A DNA stretch of 64,000 nt from an uncultured Eubacteriales bacterium (GTDB lineage: Bacteria; Bacillota; Clostridia; RUG12999), in contig CAZQDP010000002.1 of assembly GCA_964592375.1 (NCBI GenBank), forward strand, positions 10,369-74,368. Reading direction: 5' to 3'. How positions within the stretch are numbered: position 1 is the first letter of the stretch; each line of letters starts with the position of its first letter. Position numbers and translations under genes: made by a program. The notes beneath the pieces were generated by a model. The model saw nothing but the letters and a program-made list of their open reading frames with translations, was not told where the DNA came from and ran no database searches. Shown piece by piece: positions 15,396 through 60,935 of this stretch.

Positions 15396-15408
15396 TTTAG
15401 ACACCCTT

Positions 15409-19683: not shown

Positions 19684-22600
19684 TTATTTTTTTGTGACGA
19701 AGATATTGTCCCAATAGACCTTTGTATTGGTGGCCGCAATCGAGGAACCTAAGAAGATATCCTTCATATCTTTCAGGTTCATGCTCGGATCTTCCCATAG
19801 TCGGAAGGATGCATTTTCAAGCACAAGCTGTCCGTCGATATATACATTCGATGTGAGGGTCTGTGGATTAGCTTCGATTTTAAAATTGTACCATTTTCCA
19901 CTTTGAGTTTGCGCGATATCCTTCGTTATGCTGCCGTCCATGTAGCAAATATTGTTCCTATTCGCCCATATGGACAGATTGTATCGATTTTGCGAGTTTC
20001 TTGTATAAAATACCTGAACACTGCCCGCGGCGGTAGCATCAACCGGAAAATCCACCTTGAAATCTGCTTCAATGGTTACGGGCTCGGTGATAAGGGGAGA
20101 TAGGGAATATACAAAGGTGGACGCTACCGCGGGGTCGTTGTCATACAATTCAAGTGCCTGATCCTCTACGCCGAGGCTTTTCCCCTTTGCTTTTACGTAG
20201 GAGCCTCCCGCGCTCGGCGCTGTTATCGTCCAGCCATTAATCTTATCTGTTTCTCCGTAGCTGTCAAAGTTTTCATACATGACAATAGGGTTTTCCCGTG
20301 TACTTCGAACGGGAAGTGATGCAGTAAGTGTTCTGCCGTCCACAACCACCTCGCCGAAAATCACGGACTCTCCTTCGCTTACGCCGCAAATCCTATTATC
20401 ACTATTCACGCTAACAGCGGCAGAGGAGCTGGTATACCGAAGGCCTTCTTGAGAAAGATTGATGCGTGTGCCGTCCTCTAGCAGTAGGGAAGGCTCTATG
20501 GTGCCAATTTGCCCAAACTCCAATATACTGCTTTTGGTATAGAGCTGCAAGGCTTTGATAGGCTTTCCAAGCAAAAGTCCTCTCTTTTGCAAGGAACCCT
20601 CCCCAACCAAATAGTTAGCCACAAAAGTAGCCGGAAGCGCGATGGCCTTCTCTCGATTGCCTTGCGTATAGATAAGAAAATGGTCGCTTGTTTTTTCAAT
20701 ACATACCTCCATTGCATCATCCAAAGTCACGGAGGTAACGGGAGCATGGGGTTTTAGCTTATAGGTAAGGATGTGATTTGCCACTGCAATGTAGCTCGAA
20801 AACTCATAGCGGTTTTCTCGCAGCATCAGTCCTTCTTTGGCACTTCCCGTTGCGAGAAAGCCCATTAGCGCGGTTGCCTCTGTCGGCGTGACCTTGGCTG
20901 TTTGCATTTGATAATCTACACTGAATTTCTCCACCATCTGGCTTACTAAATCCGCTTCTCTTTCGGGGTCGGCCACAAAAGGATTTGCGGAAATAAGGAT
21001 AAGCCCACGATCATCCCAGAACACATATTTTCCAAGACTCTCTGCCAGTGCACGCAGTGGAAGAAGCGTACGACCCTCTTTTATCATTACAGGAACATCA
21101 ATGGTTTTTTCTTTGCCGTCTATTTTCATCACATGGCTGTTTTCCTGCATTTGGATGGTTTTGCCCTGATATCGCACGGTAACGGTTCGCGTTATCTCAT
21201 CCCAATCTACCGTAGCACCCAGTGCCTCTACAATAAACCGAACAGGAAGGAGGGTTCTGTCTTGATATACAATGGGAACAACCAAAGGATTTGCAGGGTC
21301 AATGGGCACCTTGCTGCCGGCTTTGAGCGCAATGTTTCTATCTACAAATAGTGCAAGGCTATTGCACAGCCGATTGTGCACCAGGTCAAATTCTTTTGGA
21401 AAGGACGGAGAAAGACCGATTTTTTCATAGGCCATTTTACGATCATCAAAGCCCGGCATCCAGCTGCAATTTTCCAGTACCATAAGGCCGGAACGATTCA
21501 TGCGGAAATAGTCGCCAAGATAATTGCCCTGAACATTTGATATTTTTACATTCTTAAACTGCTGTTTAAAAGTATTGTAGTCAAGGAATATACCATTCGG
21601 CCCCAAATCCTTCATGGAAGGATGAGCATAAATATTATCCACAAGTATTTGCTCGAAATAGTTGACATGTGTCATCACGCCCGGAATATCTCTTGTAATG
21701 CCCGCTTCGTGCAGGGCGCCCGTATCACCGCTGTCTTGATTGGTGCTATACACCTTTACATATTTGGTCACATTGCCACGGGCAACACCGTAAGAGGGAC
21801 CACTGCCTGCTTGCGCAGTGGTGCCTCTATAGCTTAAGCCATAGCGGGGACTATTAAAAATCTCACAATAGGAAACCATGTTACGAGTAGCATTGTACAT
21901 ATTGACACCGGCACTGTCGGTACTGCACTCGCCCACATCATTAATTCTGGTATTCGTAATGAGGTTTTGATAAAGAACCTCGCCGGCTTCGCTTCGCAGA
22001 ATAATACCGCTCACACCGATTTTTTCAAACCAACAGCCGCTGATGGTATTATTGGTATTGGCGCTGAGCATAAAAAGACCAATCAGCCCGCTATTTCTAA
22101 AATGGCAATTCTGAACCGTAATATTATCAGTGTTTGTCATATCCACCATGCCTTTTCTGGAATCAGGGGAGCCGTACCAGGCAAACATCTGATCAATAAA
22201 ATCGCTGTATTCAAAACGTAGCCCGTCGAGCACCATGTTTTTGGTACGCTCAGCAGGACTCTTGCCATGAATACTCACGAGTTTTTGCAAAGTGGGAATG
22301 ACAATATCCTGCTCATTGGGATTGCCATATCGAGGAATGTAATACAAGGTGCCGCCTGCCACATCCATATAGAATTCACCCGGTGCATCCAGCAGCTCGT
22401 ACACACCCTCCACATAGTAGCGTGCATTTGTATCAATGAGCGTGCCATCACCCTTTTGTATGGTAATGGTACGTGTGGCGGAATCTATTGTTTGAATGGG
22501 ACTTGCCCAACGATTCCAATCGCACTTTCCCCAAGGCCATACAATGAGGCTTGCAGTAGAGGTGTCTTTCCACTCCCGAGGGTCAAGGTCACCCTCTTTG

Positions 22601-23310
22601 TAAACCAGAGCGGTGTCTGTGCCGCTTGCAGATAGCAAATAGGGTGCACCGGATTTGGGGAAATTCACATCAAATACATAATTGGGATATCTCGCTCTCA
22701 TGGCTCTTTCGCCATTTTCCCACATGGTATAAAAACGAGTGCCCACAGGAATTTTTGCCTTCCATACTTTATCATTTTCCTTCTCCCAGCCGACAATCTT
22801 TTTGCCGCCCATAATGCGTGCCTTGTCAATGCCGTCTGCGCTACGCAAAATGACATGATAGCCATTGGTGCCGCTCATCTCGGAGGTAAGATCGATGGTT
22901 CTTTCGAGATAATAGTCACCTTCTTTCACATTAACAACGATATTGCCGGTCATATTTCCTGCAATTTTGCTAACCTGCGCGAGGGCTTTTTCAATGGTTT
23001 GAAAAGGAGACGATTCGCTTCCGTCCCCGCTGTCATTGCCGGTGGTGGATACAAAAAAGGCTTTCATGATCGGTGCGGCGGAATGAATTGGCTTTGCACC
23101 CACCTCATTATCCTGCACAGGAGGAACAGGCGAAGGCTGCTGTGCATCGGTAAGCTGCGCTACGATAGGAGAGTCCTTATCGGTTGCAGTTTGCATGGTG
23201 CCAACGGCGGAAATTGCGTCTTTTCCCCCCTTCAAAGTAGACATTTGCGCGGATTGTGCAAGGATGGATAGCATACAAAATACAAGCAGAAAGATGCAAC
23301 ATTTTTTCAT
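19684..23310 (-). CDS. Large secreted multidomain surface protein. Order: signal peptide, right-handed parallel beta-helix (pectate-lyase-like), two copper-amine-oxidase-N-like stalk repeats, an Ig-like domain, and a C-terminal jellyroll-like domain of unknown function.
   Basis: Start MKKCCIFLLVFCMLSILAQSA. Beta-helix repeats: NITVQNCHFRNSG...ISGCWFEKIG...VSYCEIFNSPRYG. CAO-N-like halves: DRTLLPVRFIVEALGATVDWD and GRTLLPLRALAESLGKYVFWD. The C-terminal roughly 190 aa (YENFDSY...WT...AGG.VK...DNDP...EADFKVD...WYNFKIEANP...YIDGQLV) are homologous to both termini of the 1616-aa protein. Confidence 0.75.
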   Translation of the reverse strand: MKKCCIFLLVFCMLSILAQSAQMSTLKGGKDAISAVGTMQTATDKDSPIVAQLTDAQQPSPVPPVQDNEVGAKPIHSAAPIMKAFFVSTTGNDSGDGSESSPFQTIEKALAQVSKIAGNMTGNIVVNVKEGDYYLERTIDLTSEMSGTNGYHVILRSADGIDKARIMGGKKIVGWEKENDKVWKAKIPVGTRFYTMWENGERAMRARYPNYVFDVNFPKSGAPYLLSASGTDTALVYKEGDLDPREWKDTSTASLIVWPWGKCDWNRWASPIQTIDSATRTITIQKGDGTLIDTNARYYVEGVYELLDAPGEFYMDVAGGTLYYIPRYGNPNEQDIVIPTLQKLVSIHGKSPAERTKNMVLDGLRFEYSDFIDQMFAWYGSPDSRKGMVDMTNTDNITVQNCHFRNSGLIGLFMLSANTNNTISGCWFEKIGVSGIILRSEAGEVLYQNLITNTRINDVGECSTDSAGVNMYNATRNMVSYCEIFNSPRYGLSYRGTTAQAGSGPSYGVARGNVTKYVKVYSTNQDSGDTGALHEAGITRDIPGVMTHVNYFEQILVDNIYAHPSMKDLGPNGIFLDYNTFKQQFKNVKISNVQGNYLGDYFRMNRSGLMVLENCSWMPGFDDRKMAYEKIGLSPSFPKEFDLVHNRLCNSLALFVDRNIALKAGSKVPIDPANPLVVPIVYQDRTLLPVRFIVEALGATVDWDEITRTVTVRYQGKTIQMQENSHVMKIDGKEKTIDVPVMIKEGRTLLPLRALAESLGKYVFWDDRGLILISANPFVADPEREADLVSQMVEKFSVDYQMQTAKVTPTEATALMGFLATGSAKEGLMLRENRYEFSSYIAVANHILTYKLKPHAPVTSVTLDDAMEVCIEKTSDHFLIYTQGNREKAIALPATFVANYLVGEGSLQKRGLLLGKPIKALQLYTKSSILEFGQIGTIEPSLLLEDGTRINLSQEGLRYTSSSAAVSVNSDNRICGVSEGESVIFGEVVVDGRTLTASLPVRSTRENPIVMYENFDSYGETDKINGWTITAPSAGGSYVKAKGKSLGVEDQALELYDNDPAVASTFVYSLSPLITEPVTIEADFKVDFPVDATAAGSVQVFYTRNSQNRYNLSIWANRNNICYMDGSITKDIAQTQSGKWYNFKIEANPQTLTSNVYIDGQLVLENASFRLWEDPSMNLKDMKDIFLGSSIAATNTKVYWDNIFVTKK

Positions 23311-23586
23311 CAAATTTTTTCCTTTCAAAGCGATATTTTTAATGAAGTTATTCTCTTTATTATATCGCACAATGCCTGCCGGTTACTACTGCATTTATCA
23401 CCAAAATTAATATTAGATTCTATGGAATATGCACAATTGTATTTACTCTCATCGCAAATGATAAACGAAAAAGGAAATTTTAATCAAATAGGAAAAGAAA
23501 AGCCAAACAAAATACAAAATAATGATAAAGACAGCAACCTAGAAAGTAGATATAATAAATATTGAGATAGATGGGAGGAGTCAGAT

Positions 23587-24312
23587 TTGGAAAAAAATAT
23601 TTTTGACAATTATGAGGCATTATCTGTATTTGCCGCCGAATTTATTGCAAAAGAGATACATCAAAAACGCGAATTTGTACTTGGACTGCCCACCGGCAGT
23701 ACACCAATTGGCATGTACCATGCACTTTGTGAGCTACACCAGCTTGGGAAACTGGATTTTTCAAATGTAAAGGTCTTTAATTTAGATGAGTATATTGGCA
23801 TTGACCGCTCACATCCTCAAAGCTATTATTCGTTTATGACTGAGCATTTGTACAGCCGAGTGAATTTGAAACCCGAAAATATTCATATACCCAGTGCCGA
23901 GGCTGGCGATCTTGCAGTGGAATGTGCACTATATGATAAAAAAATTGCCTGGGCAGGCGGAATTGATTTGATGGTATTAGGCGTTGGCGCCAACGGACAC
24001 ATTGGATTTAACGAGCCGGCGGATAAGCTGATGAGCCCCACACATGTCGTGGAGCTTACTAGAAGAACCATTGAAGACAATGCAAGGTTTTTTGAAGATG
24101 TTTCCTGCGTACCCGTGAAAGCGTTGACCATGGGAGTAGGCTCCATTTTAAAGGCGAAAAAAATTCTGATGCTCATCAGCGGCAAGGCAAAGCAACAGGT
24201 CGCCCGGGAGCTTTTATCCGGATATATTACCACCAAAAATCCGGCTACACTATTAATGCTCCATCCGGATGTCACCGTGATGATGGACAAAGATGCCGCC
24301 TGTGAGGACTAA
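23587..24312 (+). CDS. nagB: Glucosamine-6-phosphate deaminase.
   Basis: LGLPTGSTPIGMY...FNLDEY...GIDLMVLGVGANGHIGFNEP. TTG start with RBS gggaggag. Confidence 0.9.
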   Translation: MEKNIFDNYEALSVFAAEFIAKEIHQKREFVLGLPTGSTPIGMYHALCELHQLGKLDFSNVKVFNLDEYIGIDRSHPQSYYSFMTEHLYSRVNLKPENIHIPSAEAGDLAVECALYDKKIAWAGGIDLMVLGVGANGHIGFNEPADKLMSPTHVVELTRRTIEDNARFFEDVSCVPVKALTMGVGSILKAKKILMLISGKAKQQVARELLSGYITTKNPATLLMLHPDVTVMMDKDAACED

Positions 24313-24572
24313 GCAAGTCATAAGCACTGCAGTGCTGCGCTAAAAAAAACATCTTATAAACGAATACATTTGCAACTTGCAAGTTATCTTTTTTTGTCAT
24401 CCATTTTCTTTCATGCCAAAAAAATTACCTTATATTTGCACAAATGGAATAGGGGATAAGGATAGAATTTCTACATTTTAAGATAGGAATTTTACATTGA
24501 CTATTGGTGTAGCATATACTATAATAGCACTAGAATATACATTTTTCGCATGAATGAAAAATGGAATAGGAT

Positions 24573-26258
24573 GTGTGTATGATGAATAAACTCAAATGGT
24601 GGTTTGACAGCAAGCTGGGCATGTTTGTGCATTTCGGTCTGTATTCTCTATTGGCAGGAGAATATAAGGGACGCAAGGCCCCCGGCATATCCGAGTGGAT
24701 TATGAAGCGGCTTGAAATACCAAAGGATGAATATTTGCTTCTTGCCTCGCAGTTTAATCCGGTGAATTTTAGCGCCAAAACATGGGTTGATACTGCAAAA
24801 AAAATGGGTGCAAAATACATCACATTCACTGCAAAGCATCATGAAGGTTTTGCGCTTTACCATTCAAAGGTAAGTCCTTATAATGTAGTGGATATGACGC
24901 CTTATGGCAAAGATATTGTAAAAGAATTGGCAGACGAGTGCGCGATGCAGGGCATTGTGCTCTGTTTATATTATTCCCATGTGCAAGACTGGATTGAGGA
25001 AGGCGCCGTAGGAAATACATGGGATTTTTCGGGCGGCAGCTTTCGGGAATATCTTGATCGAAAGGTAAAACCACAGCTGAGCGAGCTACTCACACAATAT
25101 GGGAAAATTGGAATGATATGGTTTGACACGCCTTATGATATTACGCCCGAGGAAAGTAGTGAGCTTGCAGAGTATGTGCGCTCCTTGCAAGAGGACTGTT
25201 TGGTCAGCACTCGTGTGGGCAATGGATTTGGAGACTTTGAGGGATATGGAGATAATCAAGTGCCCTCTGGCACGATGGATGGATTTTGGGAGAGTATTGG
25301 TACACTCAATAATTCATGGGGCTTTAAGACGGTAGATGATAACTGGAAATCTCCGGAAATCATTATTCGTCTGTTTAGTGATATTATCAGTAAGGGTGGT
25401 GTATATACCCTCAATATCGGCCCCAAGGGAGATGGAAGTATTCCCACGCAAACGACAGATATTTTGTCCCAATTTGGAGACTTTGTCGCCAAAAATGGAG
25501 AAGCGTTTTATGGCTGTGAAAGAAATCCATACCCCTTTGAATTTCCATGGGGCGGTATTACCACCAAAGCAGATACCATCTACCTGCATGTGTTTGAAAA
25601 GGACGGTAGCATTTCCTTGTCCGGCCTTTTGTGTGATGTAAAAAAAGTGTATGCACTTCAAGACCAAAAGCCTCTTCCCTTTGTGATGAGTGAAGGGCCT
25701 TTTGGTACCAAAACACTTACCGTCGATTTTAAAAGAGATCAAAAAGAGCCTATGTATATCATCGCCGTAGAGACGGATGGAATGAAAGTCAACAAGCAAA
25801 TCATGCCACAGGACGGCGCTATTACGCTGGATGCCCAAAGCGGCACGATTTTAGGAAGTGCAGATGCAAAGCTATCTGAAGTCAAAATTATTGAGAACTG
25901 GAAGACTACGGAGAATCGTGTGAGCTGGCAGTTTTATGCGCCAAAAGGAGAGGTGGACCTTACACTTGTCACCATCGTTGAAAGACCGCACGACTGGGCA
26001 GATGAACTGACGGGCAAGTGGGAGGGCGGCCACAGAGTAGAGGTGGTATGCGAAAATCAGTCTGCCGAGTTCGACGTTGTGGAAGGGCACATTCAAAGCA
26101 ATGCTCGCTCATTATATTTTAAGGATATGTATTCACCCGGCTGCACAATCACGCTTGCGGAGGATGGCATACATACCATCGAACTTCGTGCAAAGAAAAT
26201 TGTAACGGAACTGGGCTATGGTCTTAGACTGAAAAACTTGACGCTGAAAGCAAAATAG
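24573..26258 (+). CDS. GH29 alpha-L-fucosidase with a C-terminal beta-sandwich domain.
   Basis: WWFDSKLGMFVHFGLYS...KYITFTAKHHEGFALYHS...GMIWFD are GH29 hallmarks. The real start is probably the ATG at 24579. Confidence 0.85.
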   Translation: MCMMNKLKWWFDSKLGMFVHFGLYSLLAGEYKGRKAPGISEWIMKRLEIPKDEYLLLASQFNPVNFSAKTWVDTAKKMGAKYITFTAKHHEGFALYHSKVSPYNVVDMTPYGKDIVKELADECAMQGIVLCLYYSHVQDWIEEGAVGNTWDFSGGSFREYLDRKVKPQLSELLTQYGKIGMIWFDTPYDITPEESSELAEYVRSLQEDCLVSTRVGNGFGDFEGYGDNQVPSGTMDGFWESIGTLNNSWGFKTVDDNWKSPEIIIRLFSDIISKGGVYTLNIGPKGDGSIPTQTTDILSQFGDFVAKNGEAFYGCERNPYPFEFPWGGITTKADTIYLHVFEKDGSISLSGLLCDVKKVYALQDQKPLPFVMSEGPFGTKTLTVDFKRDQKEPMYIIAVETDGMKVNKQIMPQDGAITLDAQSGTILGSADAKLSEVKIIENWKTTENRVSWQFYAPKGEVDLTLVTIVERPHDWADELTGKWEGGHRVEVVCENQSAEFDVVEGHIQSNARSLYFKDMYSPGCTITLAEDGIHTIELRAKKIVTELGYGLRLKNLTLKAK

Positions 26259-37202: not shown

Positions 37203-37224
37203 CGGAGATTAGTATAAAACAAAA

Positions 37225-37250
37225 GGCGGACGATAAACATCGTCCGCCTC
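37225..37250. terminator. Bidirectional hairpin terminator between mutY and the giant gene.
   Basis: Stem ggcggacg-ataaacat-cgtccgcc. Confidence 0.6.
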
Positions 37251-37364
37251 ATCATAACCACATATCCCATCATGGGGTTTTGAATGCGAAACATGAAAAT
37301 TTCGCATTCTTTTTACTATTCATAACAGAGTATAAAATGCCAAAGGCTTTTTTGCGAAAATATT

Positions 37365-40300
37365 TTACTGATCATATACCTTTACATTATCAATATACAA
37401 ATCCGTATTAGAGCCTAAGGTAAATGTGCCGAATGCAATCTGACTTAGTGATTTCGTAGGATTTCTAAATGATTTATCGGAAACCTTCAGCACACCATCC
37501 ACATACCAATCCGTAGTATTGTCTACAATATTGGCAACAACCTTTATTTTATACCATCGATTTTTTGATGTTGAAGACATGATGGTATAATACGTTGAAT
37601 CCATCTGAATAGACGTAATAGAGTTTGAAATGAAGGAAGATACATTATAGCCTTCCCCGTTTAGATACACCAGCTTACCGCCAGCTCTATCATACATAAA
37701 GTCAAATTCCACCACTGCAGTATCTGTTAGCCGCTGGAAGTTTGCGGTGATATCCACACTGCCCGGGTCATTGTCTACCTTGATGTGTACGCACTGTCCC
37801 GATTCCGTATTCGCAGGAGCACCGGTGGGTCTTGGAATAATCTTCACAAAGCCGCCGGCAGGGGCAGTTCCAACAGTCCACTTGGTGGAGTTGAAAGCTT
37901 CGTTTGCAGTATAGCTTTCAAAGGTCTCATCAAATACACTTATCTTATCAAGAACGGAAATATTCGCCGTGAGAACCTTGTTGCCACCGGTGGCCGGTAT
38001 TGTAACGGTAAGGGTTGTGTCACCCTGTGCAATTCCTTTGATGCTAGAAGCACTTGGTAGCTGCATCACCGCGGTGTTTCCTGAGCTGAGGGTATACATA
38101 TCCGGAGTGATAACCGTATTTTTGCCGTCAATCACCGCCATGACAGTCATAGACATGACTTGATTGATTTTTAAGGTAAGAGGAGTGGACGGATTAAAGG
38201 ACACGGTTCCGATGCGATCAAGGCTCAGCTGCTTCGCCTGCTGCGTTACCGTAAGTCCAAGGATCACAGCAGTAGCCGCATTTGCGCTATCCCCTGAGAA
38301 CACAAAGCTGCCGACAGTGGCTTGCCCAAAAACGATACTTACACTTTGTCCCACACTCGTCCATGTGATGCCGTTCGCAGAAGTATAGGCATATATGGCA
38401 CTGCCGACTTTGGCAATTTTTAAGTAGGGATTGGTGGTATAGCCTAAATCAACACTCGTCGTGCTCACATTGGTTGTTGCGCGGTATTCTAGGAAGAGTT
38501 TTCCATCTGTTCTTTTGCGAAGTGCGGCAAAGATTGCATTGGTTGCCGGACCCTCTCTTACCATCACGCCGCCACCGGTGCCCAATGGGCCTTCCAGCCG
38601 CTCTACAGCAGCAGATACGCTGTAATCTCGAAGCATTGGCGAGTCAATGTACTTATACGCATAGGTGAGGCTATCCTGCTTGCCTGAGTCGTTTTGCGTA
38701 TAGGTATTCATGCCTTTTCCGGTAGACTTCATCAAAATTCTGCCGCCTTCCATCATGGCACTGCCGGTGGGAGCGGGGTTACCTACATTGAATGCCGAAT
38801 ATTCCTTTGGAAGAATAAAGCTTCCACGCTCGTTTTGGGCACGCTTTGTAAAGGAAATGATAGCCCATTCTGCCATGCTGTCAATCGACGCGCTATACTT
38901 ACCCGAGGCAAAGCCAAGCGTAAGCTTTTGAGGTGTTTTGCCGGGACGATACAGCCATGCTTCGGGGTTTTCCGGAACAAATGCTGAAGATATGGAAACG
39001 GATAAATTTTCAGGCTTGCTATATCCGTCGTTACTGATGATATGCAGTGAGGTATCCCCGTTTTGCGCTCTGCGAACCACGCTATACACATCCGAAGCAC
39101 CCAGTACCGTGGCAGCATCTCGTGCACTAATAAAGGTACTGTTCACGCTACCTTTGTCTACAAGCGTAGCACCGCAGCCTTGCACCGCAGCCTTATCCTC
39201 TGCAGAGAAGGAATTGATATCGGAATAGGTGAGCACATAGTCAAGTCCCCCAAGCTGTTCTTTTTGAATAGTATAAAGCGGATAATCCGAATTATAGTTG
39301 GCCATGAGCAGTTTAAAGGGAACACCGGCATTAAACAAATTCATCACAAAATCCTTGATGGCACCTGTATTGGTAACGGTAATATCTGCCCAGTTAACCA
39401 AAACGCCTACCTTTGCGGGAATTTCTCTACCGTCGAACAAAGTAGCATTTTCGCGAATAAACTGATATATATCGCCGTACTCTTCTATTGTGCCAAAATA
39501 TCGTGGCACATCGGTTCCCGGAAGCCATATATCCCAAGGAACCAACATATATTGCCCCATAGCATACGCCTGCGCAATCGCTGGGCGCACCAGTTCTTTG
39601 GTTCTTTGCGTAACAACCGGAGAGATGATAATCGGCGTTCCGATACTTGTTCGAATGCTGCCGCCTGTTACAATATTGGTCAGGCTGTGTGCGCCTTCGT
39701 TGTGCTCGGTAATGCCGTAATCAAAGGATTGCCCCATATACTGATCCGTAAGAATAATGTCATTGACAGACATGGCATTCATATTGACAGACAAAGTAAT
39801 ATTTCTACCGGCATAGGCATTCATGGCACTGCGCAAATTTGCGTAGTACTGCTCGGAGGTATACATTTGAAACTTCTTAAACCACGTGTTGGTAGCCCCA
39901 AGCGTAGTGGTGCGCTGAGATGTATAATCGTTATTGGTGGTAATTCCTTTTACAAGGATAAACTGCTTATAATCAAATGTATCAATATCTGTAATGCCAA
40001 GTTCGGTAATTTGTGCGGAAGTTAAATTGCTTTTTAAATAATTTCGAAATCCAGTGATGCAATCAGGGCAGAAGCATCCCGGCGCCCAACCTATCATCCC
40101 ATAGTTGCCTGCCGCATCGTCATGCTGGAATTCTGTGGCACCTGCATCAATGGTCGTTTTGGCGATAGCTAAAGCAGCATTGTAATAAGCAGGTCTGCTC
40201 AGGCAGCCCCAGTAAGAAGGGGGTGTCCACGTCATCCACGGAGCGACAATCTTCGTGCCTTCCAAGCTAAGAGCCCAACCATCTGTTACTTGATTGATGG

Positions 40301-42215
40301 TGTTGAGTGAGCCTTGAAAACTCACGCCCAGTGCAGTGATGTTTTGGATTTGCGTATTATTTGTAATATAGGACCATTTATCTCCTGTTGCCATAAAGCG
40401 CTTGATGGCATCGAGTGAATTGATGTCTCCACCGTAGTCACCTGGATTTGTTCTGTACCATCTATTGGACAAAAATACAGCGGAGTAAGGGTTCGCCGCT
40501 ACTTTGGTTTGTGCAAGTGGGATTGGAGAGGAAAAAGAATTATCCCAAAGCATCACGGAGATGCTGTATCTCCCTTTGTGGGTTGGCATATTAAGGGATA
40601 TTGAGCTCAAATTCGAGATGCCAGAAACGACATTTACACTTCGCATAATTTTAATATCTTCCACCTTTGTGCCGTTACGCACAATGGCAATGAGTGCTGC
40701 GGTAAGCGCTTTGCCGGTGGTGTTGGCAGCGGTGGTGGTCAGCGTGACGGACGAGGAGCTTGCCAAAAGTCCGGAAGCCACCGAGGAGAGCGTTACACCC
40801 TTTTTTGCAACATCCAAAGGCTCACCGGCATAGACCATGAAGTTATCAAAACTGCCTCTGAAGGCACCAGATCCGGCGGGAGTGGATACAACAATGCCTT
40901 TGAGCGTAGCGGCTGCTGCCGCATTGGTATAAGGCAGAGGAGAAGCATTACACTTCACGCCGCCAATATACATATCATAAACGGACAAGCTTTTGCTAAT
41001 TCTGATTTGAACGGTATTAAAATCCGTAATGCTACCTAAGGAATATCCCTTGATTGTTGTAGCCTCTAATGGCAGCGATATGATATTTACTTCAGGGCCT
41101 GTGCCACCTGCACTTCCCTTGACGTTAAAGTAAAAGGGGCTGGTGGTAGAGGCCGGCTTATAATCAAAGGAAACGGTTGTAATATCATTGCTCGAAGAAA
41201 ACGGAATGGTAAGCAGATTTTTGGAAGTAGCATTTGTATTTACTTCAATATATGTATTAAATGCATCCTGCTTTCGTACAAACATACCGGTATCACTGCC
41301 TAGGCTACCGCTATATACGGTATCGGCAAGCTGCAACGGCAGGTTAAGCGGCTCGTACACGGTATATCCGGCCGGAGGCGCAGGGGTTGGCACAAGCACC
41401 GGTGCCTGTGTTGAAAAAGGGGTGGGCGAGGGTGAAGGAGTGGGAGTAACATAAAGGGCAGGGTTATACATGATCAGATTATCAATATAAAAAACACCAG
41501 CGCCTGCAGCATTGCCACTGCCAATAGAGGTTTTATAAATTTTGGCATGAAGAACAGGTGGAACAGGTGGAACAGCTGTGCTTGGTCTGAACAGTATCCA
41601 ATCGGAATTAGATGAGCCGTCCACAGAAAAGCGGTATTTTTGATTTGGTACATCCGTCTCAATTTTTGCTCGATGCCATTGGCCGATGACTGCGGCGCGA
41701 TTAATATCCGTGCCGCTACCGGTGGGAGCGACAACAGGCGCCACATTGCCGCCATTTGTAGCGCTAACACCTACCGGATACGGCCAGCTCACTTCTCTGC
41801 TGTACATCATCACATTTCCGGTCGTCTGGGATGCAGTATCCATATAAAAATCATATTCGGTGATAAAAATGCCGCTTTGGTCGGCATAGCTACTGGTAGC
41901 AAGATTAGCCATGGCTTGAATAAGAGGCGCGGTACCCGTTGGAGGCGGCGTTGTGCCCAAATGCTCAATTCGCAACACCTTTCCGCGGGAGGAGTCGCCT
42001 GGGTCATTGGCGATGGTTACCTTTGAAAGCGCGGAAACGGTAGAACCATTTGACCATGGTGCCTGCACGTTACCGACCGTGTAGGTTTCAAACTTTTCTT
42101 CATAAATCACGCCGGGAGCTGCGGCAAAGCTTTCCTCGCTACCAAAAAGGCCGGGGAACGCTGCCAATTGCACCGCAAAAACAAACAATAAAACCAAAAA
42201 GATTTTTCTAAGCAT
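37365..42215 (-). CDS. Giant secreted protein (1616 aa). Order: signal peptide, N-terminal copy of an unknown jellyroll-like domain, PT-rich linker, large central glycosidase-like catalytic region of unassigned family, beta-sandwich and Ig-like (Big_2-like) domains, and a C-terminal second copy of the same domain.
   Basis: Start MLRKIFLVLLFVFAVQLAAFPG. Linker TPTPSPSPTPFSTQAPVLVPTPAPPAG. Central region with HDDAAGNYGMIGWAPGCFCPDC. Big_2-like TLKINQVMSMTVMAVIDG...TLTVTI. The N-terminus (YEEKFETY...W...IANDPGD...EYDFYMD...YRFSVDG) and C-terminus (FDETFESY...WTVGTAPAGGFVKI...VDNDPGS...EFDFMYD...WYKIKV...WYVDGVLKV) are homologous to each other and to the C-terminus of the 1228-aa protein. Confidence 0.75.
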   Translation of the reverse strand: MLRKIFLVLLFVFAVQLAAFPGLFGSEESFAAAPGVIYEEKFETYTVGNVQAPWSNGSTVSALSKVTIANDPGDSSRGKVLRIEHLGTTPPPTGTAPLIQAMANLATSSYADQSGIFITEYDFYMDTASQTTGNVMMYSREVSWPYPVGVSATNGGNVAPVVAPTGSGTDINRAAVIGQWHRAKIETDVPNQKYRFSVDGSSNSDWILFRPSTAVPPVPPVLHAKIYKTSIGSGNAAGAGVFYIDNLIMYNPALYVTPTPSPSPTPFSTQAPVLVPTPAPPAGYTVYEPLNLPLQLADTVYSGSLGSDTGMFVRKQDAFNTYIEVNTNATSKNLLTIPFSSSNDITTVSFDYKPASTTSPFYFNVKGSAGGTGPEVNIISLPLEATTIKGYSLGSITDFNTVQIRISKSLSVYDMYIGGVKCNASPLPYTNAAAAATLKGIVVSTPAGSGAFRGSFDNFMVYAGEPLDVAKKGVTLSSVASGLLASSSSVTLTTTAANTTGKALTAALIAIVRNGTKVEDIKIMRSVNVVSGISNLSSISLNMPTHKGRYSISVMLWDNSFSSPIPLAQTKVAANPYSAVFLSNRWYRTNPGDYGGDINSLDAIKRFMATGDKWSYITNNTQIQNITALGVSFQGSLNTINQVTDGWALSLEGTKIVAPWMTWTPPSYWGCLSRPAYYNAALAIAKTTIDAGATEFQHDDAAGNYGMIGWAPGCFCPDCITGFRNYLKSNLTSAQITELGITDIDTFDYKQFILVKGITTNNDYTSQRTTTLGATNTWFKKFQMYTSEQYYANLRSAMNAYAGRNITLSVNMNAMSVNDIILTDQYMGQSFDYGITEHNEGAHSLTNIVTGGSIRTSIGTPIIISPVVTQRTKELVRPAIAQAYAMGQYMLVPWDIWLPGTDVPRYFGTIEEYGDIYQFIRENATLFDGREIPAKVGVLVNWADITVTNTGAIKDFVMNLFNAGVPFKLLMANYNSDYPLYTIQKEQLGGLDYVLTYSDINSFSAEDKAAVQGCGATLVDKGSVNSTFISARDAATVLGASDVYSVVRRAQNGDTSLHIISNDGYSKPENLSVSISSAFVPENPEAWLYRPGKTPQKLTLGFASGKYSASIDSMAEWAIISFTKRAQNERGSFILPKEYSAFNVGNPAPTGSAMMEGGRILMKSTGKGMNTYTQNDSGKQDSLTYAYKYIDSPMLRDYSVSAAVERLEGPLGTGGGVMVREGPATNAIFAALRKRTDGKLFLEYRATTNVSTTSVDLGYTTNPYLKIAKVGSAIYAYTSANGITWTSVGQSVSIVFGQATVGSFVFSGDSANAATAVILGLTVTQQAKQLSLDRIGTVSFNPSTPLTLKINQVMSMTVMAVIDGKNTVITPDMYTLSSGNTAVMQLPSASSIKGIAQGDTTLTVTIPATGGNKVLTANISVLDKISVFDETFESYTANEAFNSTKWTVGTAPAGGFVKIIPRPTGAPANTESGQCVHIKVDNDPGSVDITANFQRLTDTAVVEFDFMYDRAGGKLVYLNGEGYNVSSFISNSITSIQMDSTYYTIMSSTSKNRWYKIKVVANIVDNTTDWYVDGVLKVSDKSFRNPTKSLSQIAFGTFTLGSNTDLYIDNVKVYDQ

Positions 42216-42297
42216 AACTCACACTTCTTTCTTGAATACAGCATTTACTTAGAGAAGAGAAAAAGAAATTGGTAAACGCTTGCATACTTTTTATGAC

Positions 42298-43650
42298 TTA
42301 TATAATAATTCCATTATTTTTAATGACATCACGATACCAGTGTGCACTGCGCTTTAAGGTGCGCTTTTGGGTTTCGTAATCCACATGCACAATGCCAAAG
42401 CGTTTTGTATACCCAAAGCCCCATTCAAAATTGTCCATCAGAGACCACAAATAGTATGAATCCACATTGGCGCCATCTTCAATGGCTTGATGCATGGCCA
42501 AAATATGCTTATGAATATAATCAATGCGTCCGTCATCCTCAATATTTCCGTTGCGATTGATAATATCACGTACACACGCGCCGTTTTCCATAATGCGCAC
42601 AGGAATATTATTATAATTATTTTTGAGGCTAATTAGTAAATCATACAAAGCCTCAGGCCATATTTCTCCTCCGGTTTCTATTCTGTCTCTTCCCTGAGAC
42701 ACATTGGCACCTTCTAAGGGCCATGCCGAGGGTTCATGACGAATGTAAGCACAGGTATAATAGTTTATGCCCAAAAAGTCTGTGGGAGTGGATATGATTT
42801 TCATATCCTCCGCCTTCACTTCTGGCAATATAATCCCCTTTTTCTCATACCACTGCCATGTATCTTGAGGATAAGCTCCTTTTAAAACCGGATCGCAGAA
42901 CCATCTATTAGCAAAGCCGTCTTCTCTTTTGGCGGCGGCAATATCCTCCGGCGCATCGGAGGCCGCATAGCGTGGCAACATGGCATTGCATATGCCGATT
43001 TCAGCCTTTTTCCCGCTTTGTCTTAAGGCTTGCACCGCTTTACCATGAGACAAAAGCAAATGATGGGCAACCTGTAGGGCTTCGGAAAAATCCTTGTGGG
43101 CAGGTGCAATATATCCGTACCAATGCCCCGTAAAGGTGGTTACCCTCGGTTCATTGTGGGTGAGCCACAAAGGAACCATATCCCCAAGCTCTTTGTACAT
43201 CAAAGCGGCATATTCCTGAAAATAATCACAAATATCTCTGTTTGCCCATCCGCCCTTATCCTGCAAAGCTTGCGGAAGATCCCAATGGTACAAGGTCACC
43301 GCCGGCTTGATGCCGTTTTTAAGTAGTGTTTCGGTCAGTTTTTTATAAAAGTCAATGCCCTTTTGATTGACCTGTCCAAAGCCGGAGGGCATGACTCTTG
43401 GCCAAGATATGGAATAACGGTAGGCTTGAAGGCCAATCTGCTTCATGATGGCCACATCTTCTTCATAAAGGTGATAGTGATCACAAGCGACATCGCCGGT
43501 TTTTCCGTCCTCTATTTTGCCGGGCATATGGGTAAATCTGTCCCAAATAGATTCGCCTTTTCCATCTTCATTCCATCCGCCTTCTATTTGGTAGGAGGCA
43601 GTGGCACTTCCCCAAGTAAATCCTTTCGGAAAGTTCTTTTGCATACTCAA
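42298..43650 (-). CDS. GH1 beta-glucosidase (second copy).
   Basis: [19 protein letters not shown] and IMENG motifs. Confidence 0.9.
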
Positions 43651-43686
43651 AAATCATCACTCTTCCTTATATTGTTATTTTTGTAT

Positions 43687-44367
43687 TTATATAATTTCTT
43701 CTTCATTCTGCCTTTGCATGGCGGGGCGAAACTGCGAAAAAGCAAGGTGCAAGAGTTTTCTTACGGCAAGCAGTCCAAGATCCAGCATTAGGATAAGGAT
43801 AAGACAGCCATTCATCATAAATGGAGCGAGTTTGCCGTGATTGGCTTTTGCAAATATTTGAGGCACATAGCGTGCTACCTCCCAACGATACACATAAAAT
43901 GAAGGAATGGCAGAGGAGGTGCCCGCTATTTGATCAATTGACCATAATTTACCATATACAATAAACCGACATTTGTTGGTAATGGCATGGTAAAAATGGT
44001 CAAAAGGGTTGTTGCCTACAAGAGACAGTCTCTCTGGGTCTATTTGCAGTTTGGCCGGGAATAACCCTGTTAAAGCTTCCATGCCGCCAATCACCTTTGC
44101 ATTGGAATATTTCGGAGCGTATTCGATAAGAAGCTTGCGCTCATTAAATTCCCCTGAGGATTCAGAAGACCATTGCACAGGCAAAAGACCCCATGCCAAA
44201 AAGGTTAAAGACAGCGCCCAGAGTAGTAGCCGTGCCGCCACGACCTTTCTTTGCAGTACAAACACAAGCATGCACTTTAGGCAAGGCACTATCTTTTTGA
44301 AAAATGACACTGCCGTTTTGATTTTTATGTACAAAGAATTCTTCTGCATAGTCAATTGGAATATCAT
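43687..44367 (-). CDS. Hypothetical membrane-anchored protein (N- and C-terminal TM segments), family not recognised.
   Basis: 226-aa ORF lying between the CE4 deacetylase and GH1 on the same strand with gaps of 46 and 36 nt. Confidence 0.45.
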   Translation of the reverse strand: MIFQLTMQKNSLYIKIKTAVSFFKKIVPCLKCMLVFVLQRKVVAARLLLWALSLTFLAWGLLPVQWSSESSGEFNERKLLIEYAPKYSNAKVIGGMEALTGLFPAKLQIDPERLSLVGNNPFDHFYHAITNKCRFIVYGKLWSIDQIAGTSSAIPSFYVYRWEVARYVPQIFAKANHGKLAPFMMNGCLILILMLDLGLLAVRKLLHLAFSQFRPAMQRQNEEEII

Positions 44368-44413
44368 TCCTTCTGCTTTGGTTTTCTATGGTAAAAAACG
44401 CACGCTATATCAG

Positions 44414-45295
44414 TTACGGAATAATAACACCGAAAACAAAGCCTACGTTTTTAAGATATTCAATGCAATAGTCTAAGGTTTCTACCGTGTACATATGCGC
44501 CATGGTATCATGCATCAGTACCACGACATCTTCTTTCGCACTACAAGTGGAAACCAAGCTTTCAATAACCCGATCTTGGGAGGCGGGTTTGCCGTCCGAA
44601 TCGCTGTTGACAGCGTTCCAGTCCAAATACGCATAGTCTGTTGTAGGAAGTAGCTGCCGAAAGTGTGCTTTTTTTTGTTCAAAAGAGCCGCCGGGAAAAC
44701 GAAAAAGCTTCACAATATTCTCTCGTCCGATTACCTCTGCCAGGGTATCTTCGCAGGCTTGCAATTCATATAAAAAGCTTTTTGTACTTGCGTATACATT
44801 GCCATAACGATGAGAAAAAGAGTGGTTGGCAATCAGGTGACCTTCGGCATAAGCCCTTTTTGTGATTTCGGGATATAGCTTTACCTGGCTTCCCACACAG
44901 AAAAAAGTGGCACGAATATGGTGCTTTGCCAATATATCAAGGATGGGTGCTGTATTGGGTGTGGGGCCATCGTCAAATGTCAGATAAGCTACTTTTATGC
45001 CATCCCCCTCGCTGATACAGCTTGGGAGCAGATCTGCCTGCATAGCTGAGGATACACGAACGACCATCAAGGGGGTAGGGGATGGCAATAGCAGGGGTGG
45101 AATATTTTGCTCATATTCAGCGCGTGGATTTTCCGATAAAAAATCAGTTGCATGTGCGCTTGTGGGAATGGGAAGGCTGATGGTATAGACCACAATCATC
45201 GCAACAGCGGATAGGGAAACCAGACCATATATCGCTGTACTCAATATATTGACCATGTGCCGGCCAGGCTGCAAGAAATCACAGATATATTTCAT
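44414..45295 (-). CDS. Membrane-anchored polysaccharide deacetylase (CE4 / NodB homology).
   Basis: N-terminal TM, then AYLTFDDGPTPNT...RATFFCVG...HSFSH (NodB motifs TFDDG, H-x-x-x-H). Confidence 0.85.
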   Translation of the reverse strand: MKYICDFLQPGRHMVNILSTAIYGLVSLSAVAMIVVYTISLPIPTSAHATDFLSENPRAEYEQNIPPLLLPSPTPLMVVRVSSAMQADLLPSCISEGDGIKVAYLTFDDGPTPNTAPILDILAKHHIRATFFCVGSQVKLYPEITKRAYAEGHLIANHSFSHRYGNVYASTKSFLYELQACEDTLAEVIGRENIVKLFRFPGGSFEQKKAHFRQLLPTTDYAYLDWNAVNSDSDGKPASQDRVIESLVSTCSAKEDVVVLMHDTMAHMYTVETLDYCIEYLKNVGFVFGVIIP

Positions 45296-49824: not shown

Positions 49825-49924
49825 TCAGATAGGCGCATTTGCACTTTCACAATGTAGAAGGGTCGGATTGTCCGGCCCTTCTTTTTGAATTCATCCAGGA
49901 ATAAATAGGAAGAAGGTGAGGATA

Positions 49925-51892
49925 ATGAGAAAAAGAGCACCATATATTGCTATTATTTTTATGATGGCGTTGCAGTTTTTTGCTTTGATACCGACCATGG
50001 CAGCGGAGCTACCGGGTGCCTTCTGGAAGGTCAATGACCTGTATGCGGCAGCGGTGGAACAAAAAAATGATGAAAAAATTCTTTACTATGCACAGCAGGA
50101 ACTGGATCTGCTCCGTCCCCTGTCAAAAACAGAGCAGATAGTGGAGATTTTAGCCTCACGACTGGATCAAATGGGACTTGCCGCAGAACGGCTTGGCAGG
50201 CATCGGGAAGCGGCCGTTTACCTGCAAGAATACCTCCCCTATGCACAGCAAAAGGGCTGGGCGGATGGGGTGAAGATTGCAAAAGCTAAAATATTGCAAT
50301 ACACCCCTGTGCTGGACTTGTATACCACAACAGGGGAGCCTCAAAAGGTTTACGGTGCAAAAGGAGAACCAAAATCCGGCGTTCTCTTTGGCACAACATC
50401 GGACAGTAGCCTGCAGGGAGGCTCTTTAAATGAAAGTATGATACTCCTATACATGGAATTTGGTAATAATGATACAAGGTGGCTTGAAAAATGTCTTTTG
50501 GAGGCGAAGGCGCATGGCAAGGCGGTAGAATTGGCGCTTAACGTGCCGGGCGAGGGTACTCAAATTCCGGAGGTTACAAGCAAAGCGGAGTATGTTGCCA
50601 GTATTTTGAAGCTCATCAACGCCCATCCGGACGTGCAGGTATATCTGCGGTTTGGGGCAGAAATGAATATTTGGAACACCCTTGCAGAGCCAAAAGCATA
50701 CATTGAGGCATTTCGTTTTATCGCTACGCTTGCCCATGAAATAGCACCCAACGTGGCCATGGTATGGAGCGTGAACCAATGCTCTATGTGGAATGTGGAG
50801 ATGAACGATTATTATCCGGGGGATGAATATGTGGACTGGGTAGGCGTATCCGCATATATGCAGAAGTATTTTTTGGGAAGAAACAACTGGGCGGAAGAAG
50901 AACGGTTTAATGAAGTGGTTTTTTTGACGGGAAATAATGCAGATCCCGTCAAAGCTTTAAGCGAGGTCATTGCGAAATATGCAGATAGAAAACCCATCAT
51001 GCTTGCAGAATCAGGAAGTGCTCACTTTGTGCGCACGGTGGGAGAGGATACAACGCAGTGGGCCATTGACTACCTACATAGAATGTATCACTATATCCCC
51101 ATGGTATACCCGGAGGTGAAGCTCATTGCCTATTTTGATAAGGTGATGCCAAACGAGGTAAACGATTATGCACTCTCGTCAAATGAAAGACTCACCGATG
51201 CGTATCAAGCGCTGACTGCTCTACCCACCTTTATTCATGGTACTTGGCAAAATAGCCCTGAGGTTATTTATCAAAAGTGCCCTCCTGTCATTGAAGTAGA
51301 GGATAACACGAAGCCATTGCCAATTGGTGCCTATGTGCACCTATATGGCATTCAAAAGCCAAAAATTGATTATTATATTGATGATCAGTGGGTAGGAGGC
51401 CAAAACGAAGTACCATATAGCCAACAAATCAATTTAACCTCGTTTTCAGAAGGGTCACACAGCCTGCGAGTGAGAGCAGAATACAATAAAGACATTTTAC
51501 TGGAAAAGAACTATACGCTCCAAATCCACAGTGCGTCTCCAATTCGAATTGTGCTAAACGGGAAGCCGGTTAACACAGACGTTGCACCGATTACGGAAAA
51601 TGACAGGACCTTGGTACCCGTTCGAGTGATTTCCGAGGCATTAGGCTTTGTGGTGGAGTGGAAGGGGTCAGAACAAAAAATCACCATTACCAATAATCAA
51701 AAAGAAATTGTACTTATGGTGGGAAGCCTACGGGCGATGGTGGACCAAAAGCAAATCATGATGGATGTGCCGCCAATATTAAAAAAGGATAGAACAATGG
51801 TGCCCATTCGGTTTATTGCCGAAAATATGGGCTGTGAGGTTTCTTGGGATGCACCGTCGCGTTCGGTTCTCATTATAAAGCCTATCACATAG
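49925..51892 (+). CDS. Secreted GH26-like glycoside hydrolase (mannanase-like) with two C-terminal copper-amine-oxidase-N-like stalk repeats.
   Basis: Signal peptide MRKRAPYIAIIFMMALQFFALIPTMAA. LRFGAEMN (GH26 acid/base region R-F/P-G-H/A-E-M-N) and MLAESG (nucleophile region). C-terminal repeats DRTLVPVRVISEALGFVVEW and DRTMVPIRFIAENMGCEVSW. Confidence 0.65.
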   Translation: MRKRAPYIAIIFMMALQFFALIPTMAAELPGAFWKVNDLYAAAVEQKNDEKILYYAQQELDLLRPLSKTEQIVEILASRLDQMGLAAERLGRHREAAVYLQEYLPYAQQKGWADGVKIAKAKILQYTPVLDLYTTTGEPQKVYGAKGEPKSGVLFGTTSDSSLQGGSLNESMILLYMEFGNNDTRWLEKCLLEAKAHGKAVELALNVPGEGTQIPEVTSKAEYVASILKLINAHPDVQVYLRFGAEMNIWNTLAEPKAYIEAFRFIATLAHEIAPNVAMVWSVNQCSMWNVEMNDYYPGDEYVDWVGVSAYMQKYFLGRNNWAEEERFNEVVFLTGNNADPVKALSEVIAKYADRKPIMLAESGSAHFVRTVGEDTTQWAIDYLHRMYHYIPMVYPEVKLIAYFDKVMPNEVNDYALSSNERLTDAYQALTALPTFIHGTWQNSPEVIYQKCPPVIEVEDNTKPLPIGAYVHLYGIQKPKIDYYIDDQWVGGQNEVPYSQQINLTSFSEGSHSLRVRAEYNKDILLEKNYTLQIHSASPIRIVLNGKPVNTDVAPITENDRTLVPVRVISEALGFVVEWKGSEQKITITNNQKEIVLMVGSLRAMVDQKQIMMDVPPILKKDRTMVPIRFIAENMGCEVSWDAPSRSVLIIKPIT

Positions 51893-59648: not shown

Positions 59649-59735
59649 TCAAATAGAAATATAATGTACATGGATTTTTACATTAGCAATTGTTATAATG
59701 ATAATATACTGATATAGAGAGGAATGAATAAAACC

Positions 59736-60935
59736 ATGAAAAGAGCACGAACTCTATTGATGGTGCTTGCATTCGTTTTTTATGTATCCCCCGTTTTGGC
59801 GTATGATATAGGCCCCCGAATGATGGTGAATGATGCCGAGGTAAAGGTTGGCGCTAACTCCGTATGGATTGGTGAGGTGGCATATTATCCCGTGCGTCTT
59901 CTCTGTTGGGAAATAGGTGCCATGGTGCGATATGTGGCTGAAGAAAATATGGTGGAAATAAAAAAGGGCAATATCACCTTGCAATACTATCCCAATTTGG
60001 GTATTAGCAATACGGAGAAAAATGGAGAGAAAATTCAGGAAAATGTGTATACTGAGGTGCAAAATGGCAGGCTTTTTGTCCCTGTGGAGTATACAGCAAG
60101 AGCCCTTGGTTGCATTACTGCATATGATAGGGCAGAGAATATGCAAATCATTATTGATTTTGAAGCGCTTTGGAAGCGAGTAGAAAAAAAGAGCCCCATT
60201 TTATGGAGTCGTCTTTCTGGAACCATTCCATATGTGCAAAGCAATACTTTTGATTTTTCATATATTCAGTCCGTTATATTGGGGCAAGGGAATGATACTT
60301 CCTCCTTTGACCGCATGTCCTTTACATTAAAGGGCATTTGTGAAGGAAATAATGCAAATATGCATATGGAGCAAAAGTCATATGAGACTGACCGCACAGC
60401 GGATGCTTCGGTGGACCTTACACTCAAAGAGGGCCTTTTGCATCTTGAAGCAGATGGAAAAATCAAGACTGCTCCCCCCCCTACCGGGGTGATGCAGATG
60501 CTTGCTTCAGAAAAAAGTGCAAAGGATATCATCGATGCACTTCTGCAATACTATTTTGAACAGCATCCCCCCAAAAAGGCAGAAGGTTTGCTGATGGGCG
60601 ATGTATTTTCCAACTTCCAAGTCTTATACAAAGCGGTTGCGAAGGAATATGTAGGATCAAGCGGGTCTGTTGGCACATATGTAACCATTACAGCCAATCG
60701 GCTGGGCGAGGCATTGCAGCAGGGAGATTTTGAGATGAGCTCGAAACGATATTATTTTGAAAATATCATGTATAATCCGCTTGAAATCAAAGCAGATATT
60801 CTGCAATATCCCGACTCCAGAACCGATATCAATATGATCTTGGACACTACTTATAATATTCCCTCTAGTATTGAGGAGCAAACGATTATTGCAACGGACC
60901 GTACCTCTGTGAGCGTAAAGATAAGGCCTTCGTAG
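59736..60935 (+). CDS. Secreted hypothetical protein with an N-terminal copper-amine-oxidase-N-like stalk domain.
   Basis: Signal peptide MKRARTLLMVLAFVFYVSPVLA. Repeat halves AYYPVRLLCWEIGAMVRY and RLFVPVEYTARALGCITAY. The remaining roughly 280 aa are unrecognised. Confidence 0.6.
   Translation: MKRARTLLMVLAFVFYVSPVLAYDIGPRMMVNDAEVKVGANSVWIGEVAYYPVRLLCWEIGAMVRYVAEENMVEIKKGNITLQYYPNLGISNTEKNGEKIQENVYTEVQNGRLFVPVEYTARALGCITAYDRAENMQIIIDFEALWKRVEKKSPILWSRLSGTIPYVQSNTFDFSYIQSVILGQGNDTSSFDRMSFTLKGICEGNNANMHMEQKSYETDRTADASVDLTLKEGLLHLEADGKIKTAPPPTGVMQMLASEKSAKDIIDALLQYYFEQHPPKKAEGLLMGDVFSNFQVLYKAVAKEYVGSSGSVGTYVTITANRLGEALQQGDFEMSSKRYYFENIMYNPLEIKADILQYPDSRTDINMILDTTYNIPSSIEEQTIIATDRTSVSVKIRPS

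Follow-up and report, generated by a model that had tools for sequence, protein, structure and literature searches.

Alpha-agarase is the only activity that we found described in the literature for glycoside hydrolase family GH96, and the sole solved structure of the family (PDB 9m0b, released March 2026) is that of the Catenovulum maritimum enzyme Cm-AGA. The catalytic pair was determined by mutagenesis as Asp994/Glu1129 in Cm-AGA (PMC11311870) and as D333/E468 in AgaB (PMC10740060). Earlier reported alpha-agarases bear three to four CBM6 domains. As for GH96 in Firmicutes, the literature yielded only an isolated rumen metagenome count and a misprint of GH94, which is neutral with regard to CAZy membership. 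Two other described systems are relevant here: the GH141 alpha-L-fucosidase BT_1002 and the enzyme BT_1020 of Bacteroides thetaiotaomicron (PDB 5mqr/5mqs), which has an internal concanavalin-A-like (ConA-like) domain.

We have analysed two large and probably secreted proteins, A (1616 aa) and B (1228 aa), encoded in the window (the whole stretch of DNA under study, 64,000 nt). A module repeated in the two proteins and an odd core in A had been noticed in a reading of the sequence alone, and this observation was confirmed overall. Its interpretation stood in part: the module is of the LamG/CBM-like type, but neither the module nor the core is new in kind. A and B are an uncharacterized branch of known families. 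The best explanation, to which we assign a probability of about 0.7, is that A is a module-bearing GH96-related glycosidase with a probable substrate other than agar, and that B ends in the same cassette.

Organization of the two proteins

Both genes lie exactly where the sequence-only reading had placed them (Table 1). A would be a secreted, multi-modular glycoside hydrolase of roughly 175 kDa; three ConA-like modules (two N-terminal and one C-terminal) and Ig-like spacers flank its core.

Table 1. Features of proteins A and B, with positions in the window
Feature	Position	Strand	Basis or remark
Protein A, 1616 aa	37365..42215	-
Probable Sec signal peptide, A 1-31	42123..42215	-	MLRK, hydrophobic stretch and AAA, judged by eye from the translation
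ConA-like/LamG module copy 1 (N-type), A 40-252	41460..42098	-	Leave-out profile; counterparts in homologues exceed Laminin_G_3 threshold
Pro/Thr-rich linker, A 253-292			Between module copies 1 and 2
ConA-like/LamG module copy 2 (N-type, most diverged), A 293-464	40824..41339	-	Leave-out profile
Segment without assignment, A 470-574	40494..40808	-	Between N-terminal modules and core; no Pfam match
GH96-like catalytic region, A 575-1130	38826..40493	-	Interpreted as a barrel-type domain with alpha/beta and beta-rich parts C-terminal to it
Cys cluster C671, C714, C716, C719 (WGC ... GCFCPDC)	40059..40205	-	Putative GH42-type structural metal site
D699 codon, predicted catalytic Asp (HDD motif)	40119..40121	-	Conservation and alignment to 9m0b D323
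E837 codon, predicted catalytic Glu (GITEH motif)	39705..39707	-	Conservation and MAFFT alignment to 9m0b E458
Probable ConA-like beta-sandwich (DUF1349 / GH43_C2-like), weakly supported, A 1135-1330	38226..38813	-	Sub-threshold Pfam matches in homologues
Ig-like (Big_2-type) spacer, A 1335-1425	37941..38213	-	Placed by position, from homologues
ConA-like/LamG module copy 3 (C-type), A 1430-1616	37368..37928	-	Leave-out profile
Terminator-like hairpin downstream of A	37223..37250	-	Consensus scan; 12-bp stem, then T run
Protein B, 1228 aa	19684..23370	-
GH141-like right-handed beta-helix catalytic region, B 96-514	21829..23085	-	PDB 9rx2, 5mqp; Pfam Beta_helix, DUF1565
Cu_amine_oxidN1 domain, B 697-788	21007..21282	-	Pfam PF07833, 105.4 bits, E 2e-30
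End of Ig-like spacer common to A, B 994-1032	20275..20391	-	Start of the A/B BLASTP alignment, N-terminal to the module
ConA-like/LamG module copy 4 (C-type), B 1033-1228	19687..20274	-	Leave-out profile; BLASTP to C-terminus of A

Several rows of the table draw on homologues of A (given P numbers below). The Ig-like spacer produced no direct Pfam match in A itself; Big_2 is above threshold just N-terminal to the C-terminal module in P0005, P0007, P0010, P0011 and P0017. The counterparts of A 1135-1330 gave sub-threshold Pfam matches only, to GH43_C2 in P0007 (E 3.5e-4) and to DUF1349 in P0016 (E 2e-3); P0003, a DUF1349-containing protein, matches 12% of A. The position of A 470-574 is occupied by Cu_amine_oxidN1 in six homologues. 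A degenerate Cu_amine_oxidN1 domain in this segment of A was considered and rejected, there being no match.

The beta-helix of B is significantly similar to GH141 proteins: the PDB search gave 9rx2 (E 1.2e-24) and BT_1002 (5mqp, E 2.4e-18), the Pfam models Beta_helix and DUF1565 are above threshold, and GH141_M scored 25.7 against a cut-off of 27. Beyond the GH141 beta-helix, B has extra Cu_amine_oxidN1, Ig-like and ConA-like modules. The first of these had been absent from the earlier description of the protein.

Neither protein had been seen to carry an LPXTG motif, an SLH domain or a dockerin, and we found none either: the Pfam SLH and dockerin models gave no match at E up to 1, and no LPXTG is present at the C-termini. 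A loose LPXTG pattern matched A at internal positions only (LPYTN at 427 and NPYSA at 575) and B nowhere.

When the region was scanned with promoter and terminator consensus sequences, the number of sites did not rise above that in shuffles. Since the total of terminator-like sites does not exceed that in shuffles, the case for a terminator hairpin after A is made by its position and stem length only.

A lectin-like module present in four copies

The cassette common to A and B, as delimited by BLASTP, consists of the Ig-like spacer and the C-type module: A 1392-1613 aligns with B 994-1225 at 27% identity (E 1.6e-12). The same program did not align the two ends of A with each other, nor did it detect the N-terminal copy that the sequence-only reading had claimed; because BLASTP is blind to this similarity, the claim was tested with profiles. 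A leave-out family profile was built from 51 module instances of homologues, with A, B and P0002 (a 69% identical homologue) excluded. It scored 53.5 bits on A 40-252, 23.0 bits on A 292-464, 112.0 bits on A 1430-1616 and 128.9 bits on B 1033-1228; among 4000 shuffled copies of A and B the best reached 7.9 bits. When N-type copies of other proteins were compared with C-type ones, profile to profile, they matched with a probability of 99.9% (E 2.3e-31). Pairwise identity among the four copies in the window is 12-26%.

Thus, homologous copies do occur at the N- and C-termini of A and at the C-terminus of B, as had been proposed; the count is four rather than three because the second N-terminal copy (A 293-464) had been overlooked. 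A strong second copy is found at the same position in P0004, P0007, P0010, P0014, P0015 and P0016. About 25 long relatives of the A core bear the module at both termini; it is present once or twice N-terminally, with up to seven copies in one protein. A search of the other ORFs in the window found no further copy.

Taken alone, the window copies remain below the cut-off of 27 for Pfam PF22585 (Sialidase-like_CBM), with 17.8 bits in A and 17.2 bits in B, and they do not match Laminin_G_3 (PF13385). Among 40 module instances scanned singly, 19 match Laminin_G_3 (best E 5.8e-8) and 18 match PF22585 (best E 7.9e-7); the CBM40 model PF02973 touched a single one (E 0.03). In scans of whole homologues, Laminin_G_3 reached 42 bits in P0004 and 52.7 bits in P0007, in both of which the second N-type copy matched best; in P0021 it reached 51.9 bits. 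With PF22585, the C-terminal copies of P0004, P0005, P0011 and P0016 scored 29-35 bits; in P0014 the score was 50.9 bits, and it was the N-terminal copy (residues 69-181) that matched best. As homologous copies exceed the threshold of one or the other Pfam model in seven proteins (P0004, P0005, P0007, P0011, P0014, P0016 and P0021), membership of the window copies holds at the superfamily level by transitivity.

Searched against the PDB, the module family profile found laminin alpha-2 LG (E 3e-5), BT_1020, CBM40-type domains and the lectin domains of the Vibrio cholerae sialidase. The module has the fold of a ConA-like beta-sandwich; for A 1430-1616, an AlphaFold2 model (from a 40-sequence alignment) has a pLDDT of 91.6 and is all-beta. 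The earlier guess of a LamG/CBM-like beta-sandwich was therefore right, given the Pfam and PDB matches of the family and the all-beta model, while the statement that the module could not be placed is superseded by the Laminin_G_3 and PF22585 matches in homologues: the module is a diverged member of the ConA-like superfamily, situated between these two Pfam families. Its closest structural and sequence relatives are the domain of BT_1020, the V. cholerae and Akkermansia sialidase lectin domains, CBM66 and domain 4 of AbnA. Identity to the BT_1020 domain is only 14-16%, and that domain is internal in an enzyme of different architecture.

The core of A is a distant relative of GH96 alpha-agarases

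The central region of A with HDDAAGNYGMIGWAPGCFCPDC (residues 698-719), singled out earlier as catalytic-looking, is present and has no Pfam or NCBIfam assignment. Nothing in A exceeded the Pfam or NCBIfam thresholds, and no Pfam model covered the core in A or in the 16 homologues scanned. An exhaustive search yielded 863 representative relatives of the central region, each representing a cluster at 50% identity.

Within the PDB, a sequence search with the core gave one clear match, alpha-agarase 9m0b (phmmer E 1.5e-16). A profile of 26 family cores matched the same protein with E 1.7e-52 (182 bits), and the homology spans nearly the full length of the core (profile positions 67-542 versus chain residues 261-769 of 9m0b). 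The AlphaFold2 model of A 575-1130 is of high confidence (pLDDT 92.4, pTM 0.91), and Foldseek placed 9m0b first (E 3e-33, TM 0.76, 19% identity). The next matches, to GH42, GH151, GH66 and other glycosidase structures, begin at about 1e-13, so that 9m0b leads them by twenty orders of magnitude. The core and GH96 have in common significant sequence similarity, the fold and a conserved catalytic Asp and Glu. Hence the core, for which the sequence-only reading had found no GH family, is distantly related to the GH96 alpha-agarases.

These results bear on the view that neither module nor core belongs to a described family, the former being a new carbohydrate-binding or anchoring family and the latter a new glycosidase family without kinship to any named one. 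The view draws on the Pfam and NCBIfam results for A and the homologues given above and on a word-index search, which returned only one close homologue. It is largely refuted by the Pfam matches in homologues, the profile and Foldseek matches to 9m0b and the known relatives of the module, and we consider it very improbable. Both module and core essentially belong to known families, a placement reached via remote-homology methods only.

The second-best structural matches, the GH42 beta-galactosidases and the GH151 fucosidase (E about 1e-13, TM 0.58), do not show significant sequence similarity to the core (profile E 0.06-1, limited to the Cys-motif stretch). GH42 enzymes and the core do have the Cys-cluster motif in common, at an equivalent place in the sequence, and the weak matches of the core profile to GH42 beta-galactosidases fall on this stretch. 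Each of the four cluster positions is Cys in 19-20 of the 26 family members. We consider the cluster to be a probable structural metal site of the GH42 type. In GH42-type enzymes the catalytic Glu is expected right after a conserved Asn. GH42 membership of A was rejected, since the invariant N811 has no conserved Glu right after it in the core-family consensus, where the conserved carboxylates are D699 and E837; the similarity to GH42 is at the fold level only.

Predicted catalytic pair and clade-specific residues

The chain index of 9m0b plus 671 gives the Cm-AGA numbering, and hence D323 and E458 of the chain are Asp994 and Glu1129. A MAFFT alignment with bridging sequences puts these two residues on D699 and E837 of A, both of which are invariant in the family (26 of 26 sequences). 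The HMMER alignment agrees on the Asp but pairs the Glu with D832, five residues before E837. The identification of D699 as the predicted catalytic Asp is secure, whereas that of E837 as the predicted Glu hinges on which alignment is used. Asp and Glu are 138 residues apart in A versus 135 in both Cm-AGA and AgaB.

In the AlphaFold2 model D699, E837, D895 and R905 are situated in predicted beta-strands, with D699 at the very end of its strand, and N811 comes immediately after one. The active site of a barrel-type glycosidase is expected at such strand positions. D699 and E837 would be the catalytic carboxylates of A, at one face of the predicted barrel, and the core would most likely hydrolyse a glycosidic bond.

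In the clade of A, residues D700, N811, D895 (of a PWD motif) and R905 are invariant or near-invariant; their counterparts in 9m0b are T, S, N and T, and the Cys4 cluster is missing there (GGDFSPYAM at that stretch). The absence of the four residues and of the Cys4 cluster from the alpha-agarase suggests that agarose is probably not the substrate of A. We also weighed whether A could itself be an alpha-agarase (EC 3.2.1.158), splitting the alpha-1,3 bonds in agarose as a terrestrial or gut equivalent of the marine enzymes. The matching fold and the conservation of both catalytic residues speak for it, as do relatives in Paenibacillus and Cohnella, genera with known agar degraders (PMC5069468, PMC9008576). 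Still, identity of the core to 9m0b is only 19-23% and does not exceed 26% for any of the best 150 of the 863 representatives, and no CBM6, CBM2 or thrombospondin-type repeats were detected in A by Pfam, ConA-like modules standing in their place. Of glycosidase families, Pfam revealed only GH1, GH29, GH26 and GHL6 in 20 ORFs of the window and 10 ORFs of three related loci (a scan not aimed specifically at GH50, GH86 or GH117). The differing conserved residues, together with the taxonomic distribution (characterized agarases come from marine genera, the relatives of A from Paenibacillus, Cohnella, Clostridia and Armatimonadia), argue against a specificity identical to that of alpha-agarase. With the low identity added, a strict alpha-agarase function appears distinctly unlikely.

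Possible role of the modules

Under the preferred reading of A as a module-bearing GH96-related glycosidase, the modules would hold the enzymes on a polysaccharide, and the cassette of Ig-like spacer and module would target the unrelated GH141-like enzyme B as well. Judged by their relatives and by their attachment to two different glycosidases, the modules would most likely act as non-catalytic, multivalent carbohydrate-binding modules. We know of no demonstrated ligand for the ConA-like domain of BT_1020.

A different role, cell-surface retention or protein-protein assembly, might substitute for the absent LPXTG, SLH and dockerin elements. The absence of any recognized anchor from A and B agrees with such a role, as does the fact that two unrelated enzymes both end in the Ig-like spacer and the module; among the structural neighbours of the module are also lectin-like domains from botulinum neurotoxin and NTNHA complexes. 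However, the closest relatives of the module belong to glycan-active enzymes, the N-terminal copies and the number reached in one protein are typical of CBM multivalency, and Cu_amine_oxidN1 offers another candidate for surface association, both in the genome under study and in A homologues. Retention or assembly as the function of the modules is, in our estimate, unlikely.

Distribution and gene neighbourhoods

Relatives of the core in sequenced genomes were found in several species of Paenibacillus and in Cohnella fermenti; others come from uncultured Bacillota and Clostridia (one of them from a goat caecum), from Armatimonadia and from Candidatus Zipacnadia. The family is large, and its members have the alpha-agarase fold and catalytic pair and, in the 17 proteins scanned, no matching Pfam model. 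It extends over soil-associated genera (Paenibacillus, Cohnella) and gut and uncultured bacteria, has conserved residues of its own, and in one sub-clade displays a fixed architecture of lectin-like (BT_1020-type) modules.

We put forward, tentatively and at slightly less than even odds, that A and its long, module-flanked Firmicute relatives make up a branch of the GH96 superfamily with a new function, which may merit a GH family or subfamily of its own. Its members might act on a non-agar terrestrial or gut glycan by means of D700, N811, D895 and R905, most of them, A included, with a GH42-like Cys4 metal site, and the BT_1020-type modules might constitute a CBM family that has yet to be defined experimentally. 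A single characterized member would give function to hundreds of giant secreted proteins now called 'hypothetical', and could reveal a new glycosidase specificity along with a new type of CBM. No concept is overturned by this, as multi-modular CAZymes with LamG-like CBMs are commonplace.

Neighbouring genes were scanned at three related loci (10 ORFs), with twelve other loci left out. The Paenibacillus locus is flanked by genes for a histidine kinase, an AraC-type response regulator and an ABC solute-binding protein (L001); the neighbour at the goat-caecum Clostridia locus encodes a GHL6 protein (L012), and two neighbours at a locus from a Bacillota metagenome-assembled genome have SLH domains (L010). 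In the window itself, a GH1 gene, an ORF without a Pfam match and a CE4 deacetylase gene are situated upstream of A on the same strand. Besides GH1, GH29 and a GH26-like protein, no other glycosidase family was found among the 20 ORFs scanned, which lie from position 15400 onward. Judged by its gene content (HprK, MurB, WhiA and Cu_amine_oxidN1 proteins) and its GC content of 44.7%, the window is probably part of a Bacillota/Clostridia chromosome; a glutamate synthase is also encoded. The wider window mixes housekeeping genes with secreted glycosidases.

Gene context and core of the GH96-like protein

The gene for protein A (1616 aa, with a GH96-like core between ConA-like/LamG modules) is the last of four same-strand genes spaced by 36–82 bp, preceded, in this order, by a CE4 deacetylase gene, a 226-aa ORF without a Pfam match and a GH1 gene. 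A consensus scan, whose counts were not above those in shuffled sequences, placed promoter-like sites upstream of the CE4 deacetylase gene and a terminator-like hairpin with a 12-bp stem at the end of the run. The four genes may form one operon.

Features discussed in the text, with their positions in the window
Feature	Position	Strand
GH29 and NagB-like genes with protein B gene	19684-26258	
Cu_amine_oxidN1, protein B	21007-21282	-
Leader of protein B as called	23308-23370	-
Four-gene run	37223-45295	-
Terminator-like hairpin	37250-37223	-
Cysteine cluster, protein A	40059-40205	-
Residues 470-574, protein A	40494-40808	-
GH1 gene	42298-43650	-
226-aa ORF	43687-44367	-
CE4 deacetylase gene	44414-45295	-
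GH26-like protein	49916-51892	+
403-aa protein	59724-60935	+

In the core, four cysteines (C671, C714, C716 and C719; WGC ... GCFCPDC) make a cluster retained by about three-quarters of the core family and absent from the solved α-agarase (PDB 9m0b, GH96). The weak sequence matches of the core family to GH42 β-galactosidases coincide with this cluster.

Family searches with residues 470-574 of protein A (∼105 aa) produced no matches; the segment follows the N-terminal modules and precedes the core, the position at which six homologues carry Cu_amine_oxidN1. This domain, present in three secreted-looking proteins of the window (protein B, a GH26-like protein and a 403-aa protein), may be a surface-association or stalk module of the source lineage.

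N-terminus and possible substrate of protein B

Protein B was called from an upstream GTG start, with a 20-aa leader preceding a signal peptide of textbook type, MKKCCIFLLVFCMLSILAQSAQ. Met21 is probably the true start, giving a real length of ∼1208 aa, which would account for the absence of the exact 1228-aa sequence from the protein collection.

The catalytic part of protein B resembles BT_1002 (GH141), and the module it shares with protein A resembles a domain of BT_1020; we take both to be parts of the Bacteroides thetaiotaomicron rhamnogalacturonan-II degradation system. Together with the adjoining genes for a GH29 α-L-fucosidase and a NagB-like protein, these similarities hint that the substrate is either complex pectin or fucosylated glycans of the host.

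Multiplicity of the shared module

In a Clostridia MAG from goat caecum (locus L012, 2-17635), each of four adjacent ORFs carries the ConA-like module, in three, three, one and two copies, the second three-copy ORF being the GH96-like protein; a GHL6 protein is situated among them. The presence of the module in four adjacent ORFs suggests a locus built around it. An extreme example of module multivalency is a representative protein of 2537 aa (P0027), with seven copies, six N-terminal to the GH96-like core and one C-terminal.
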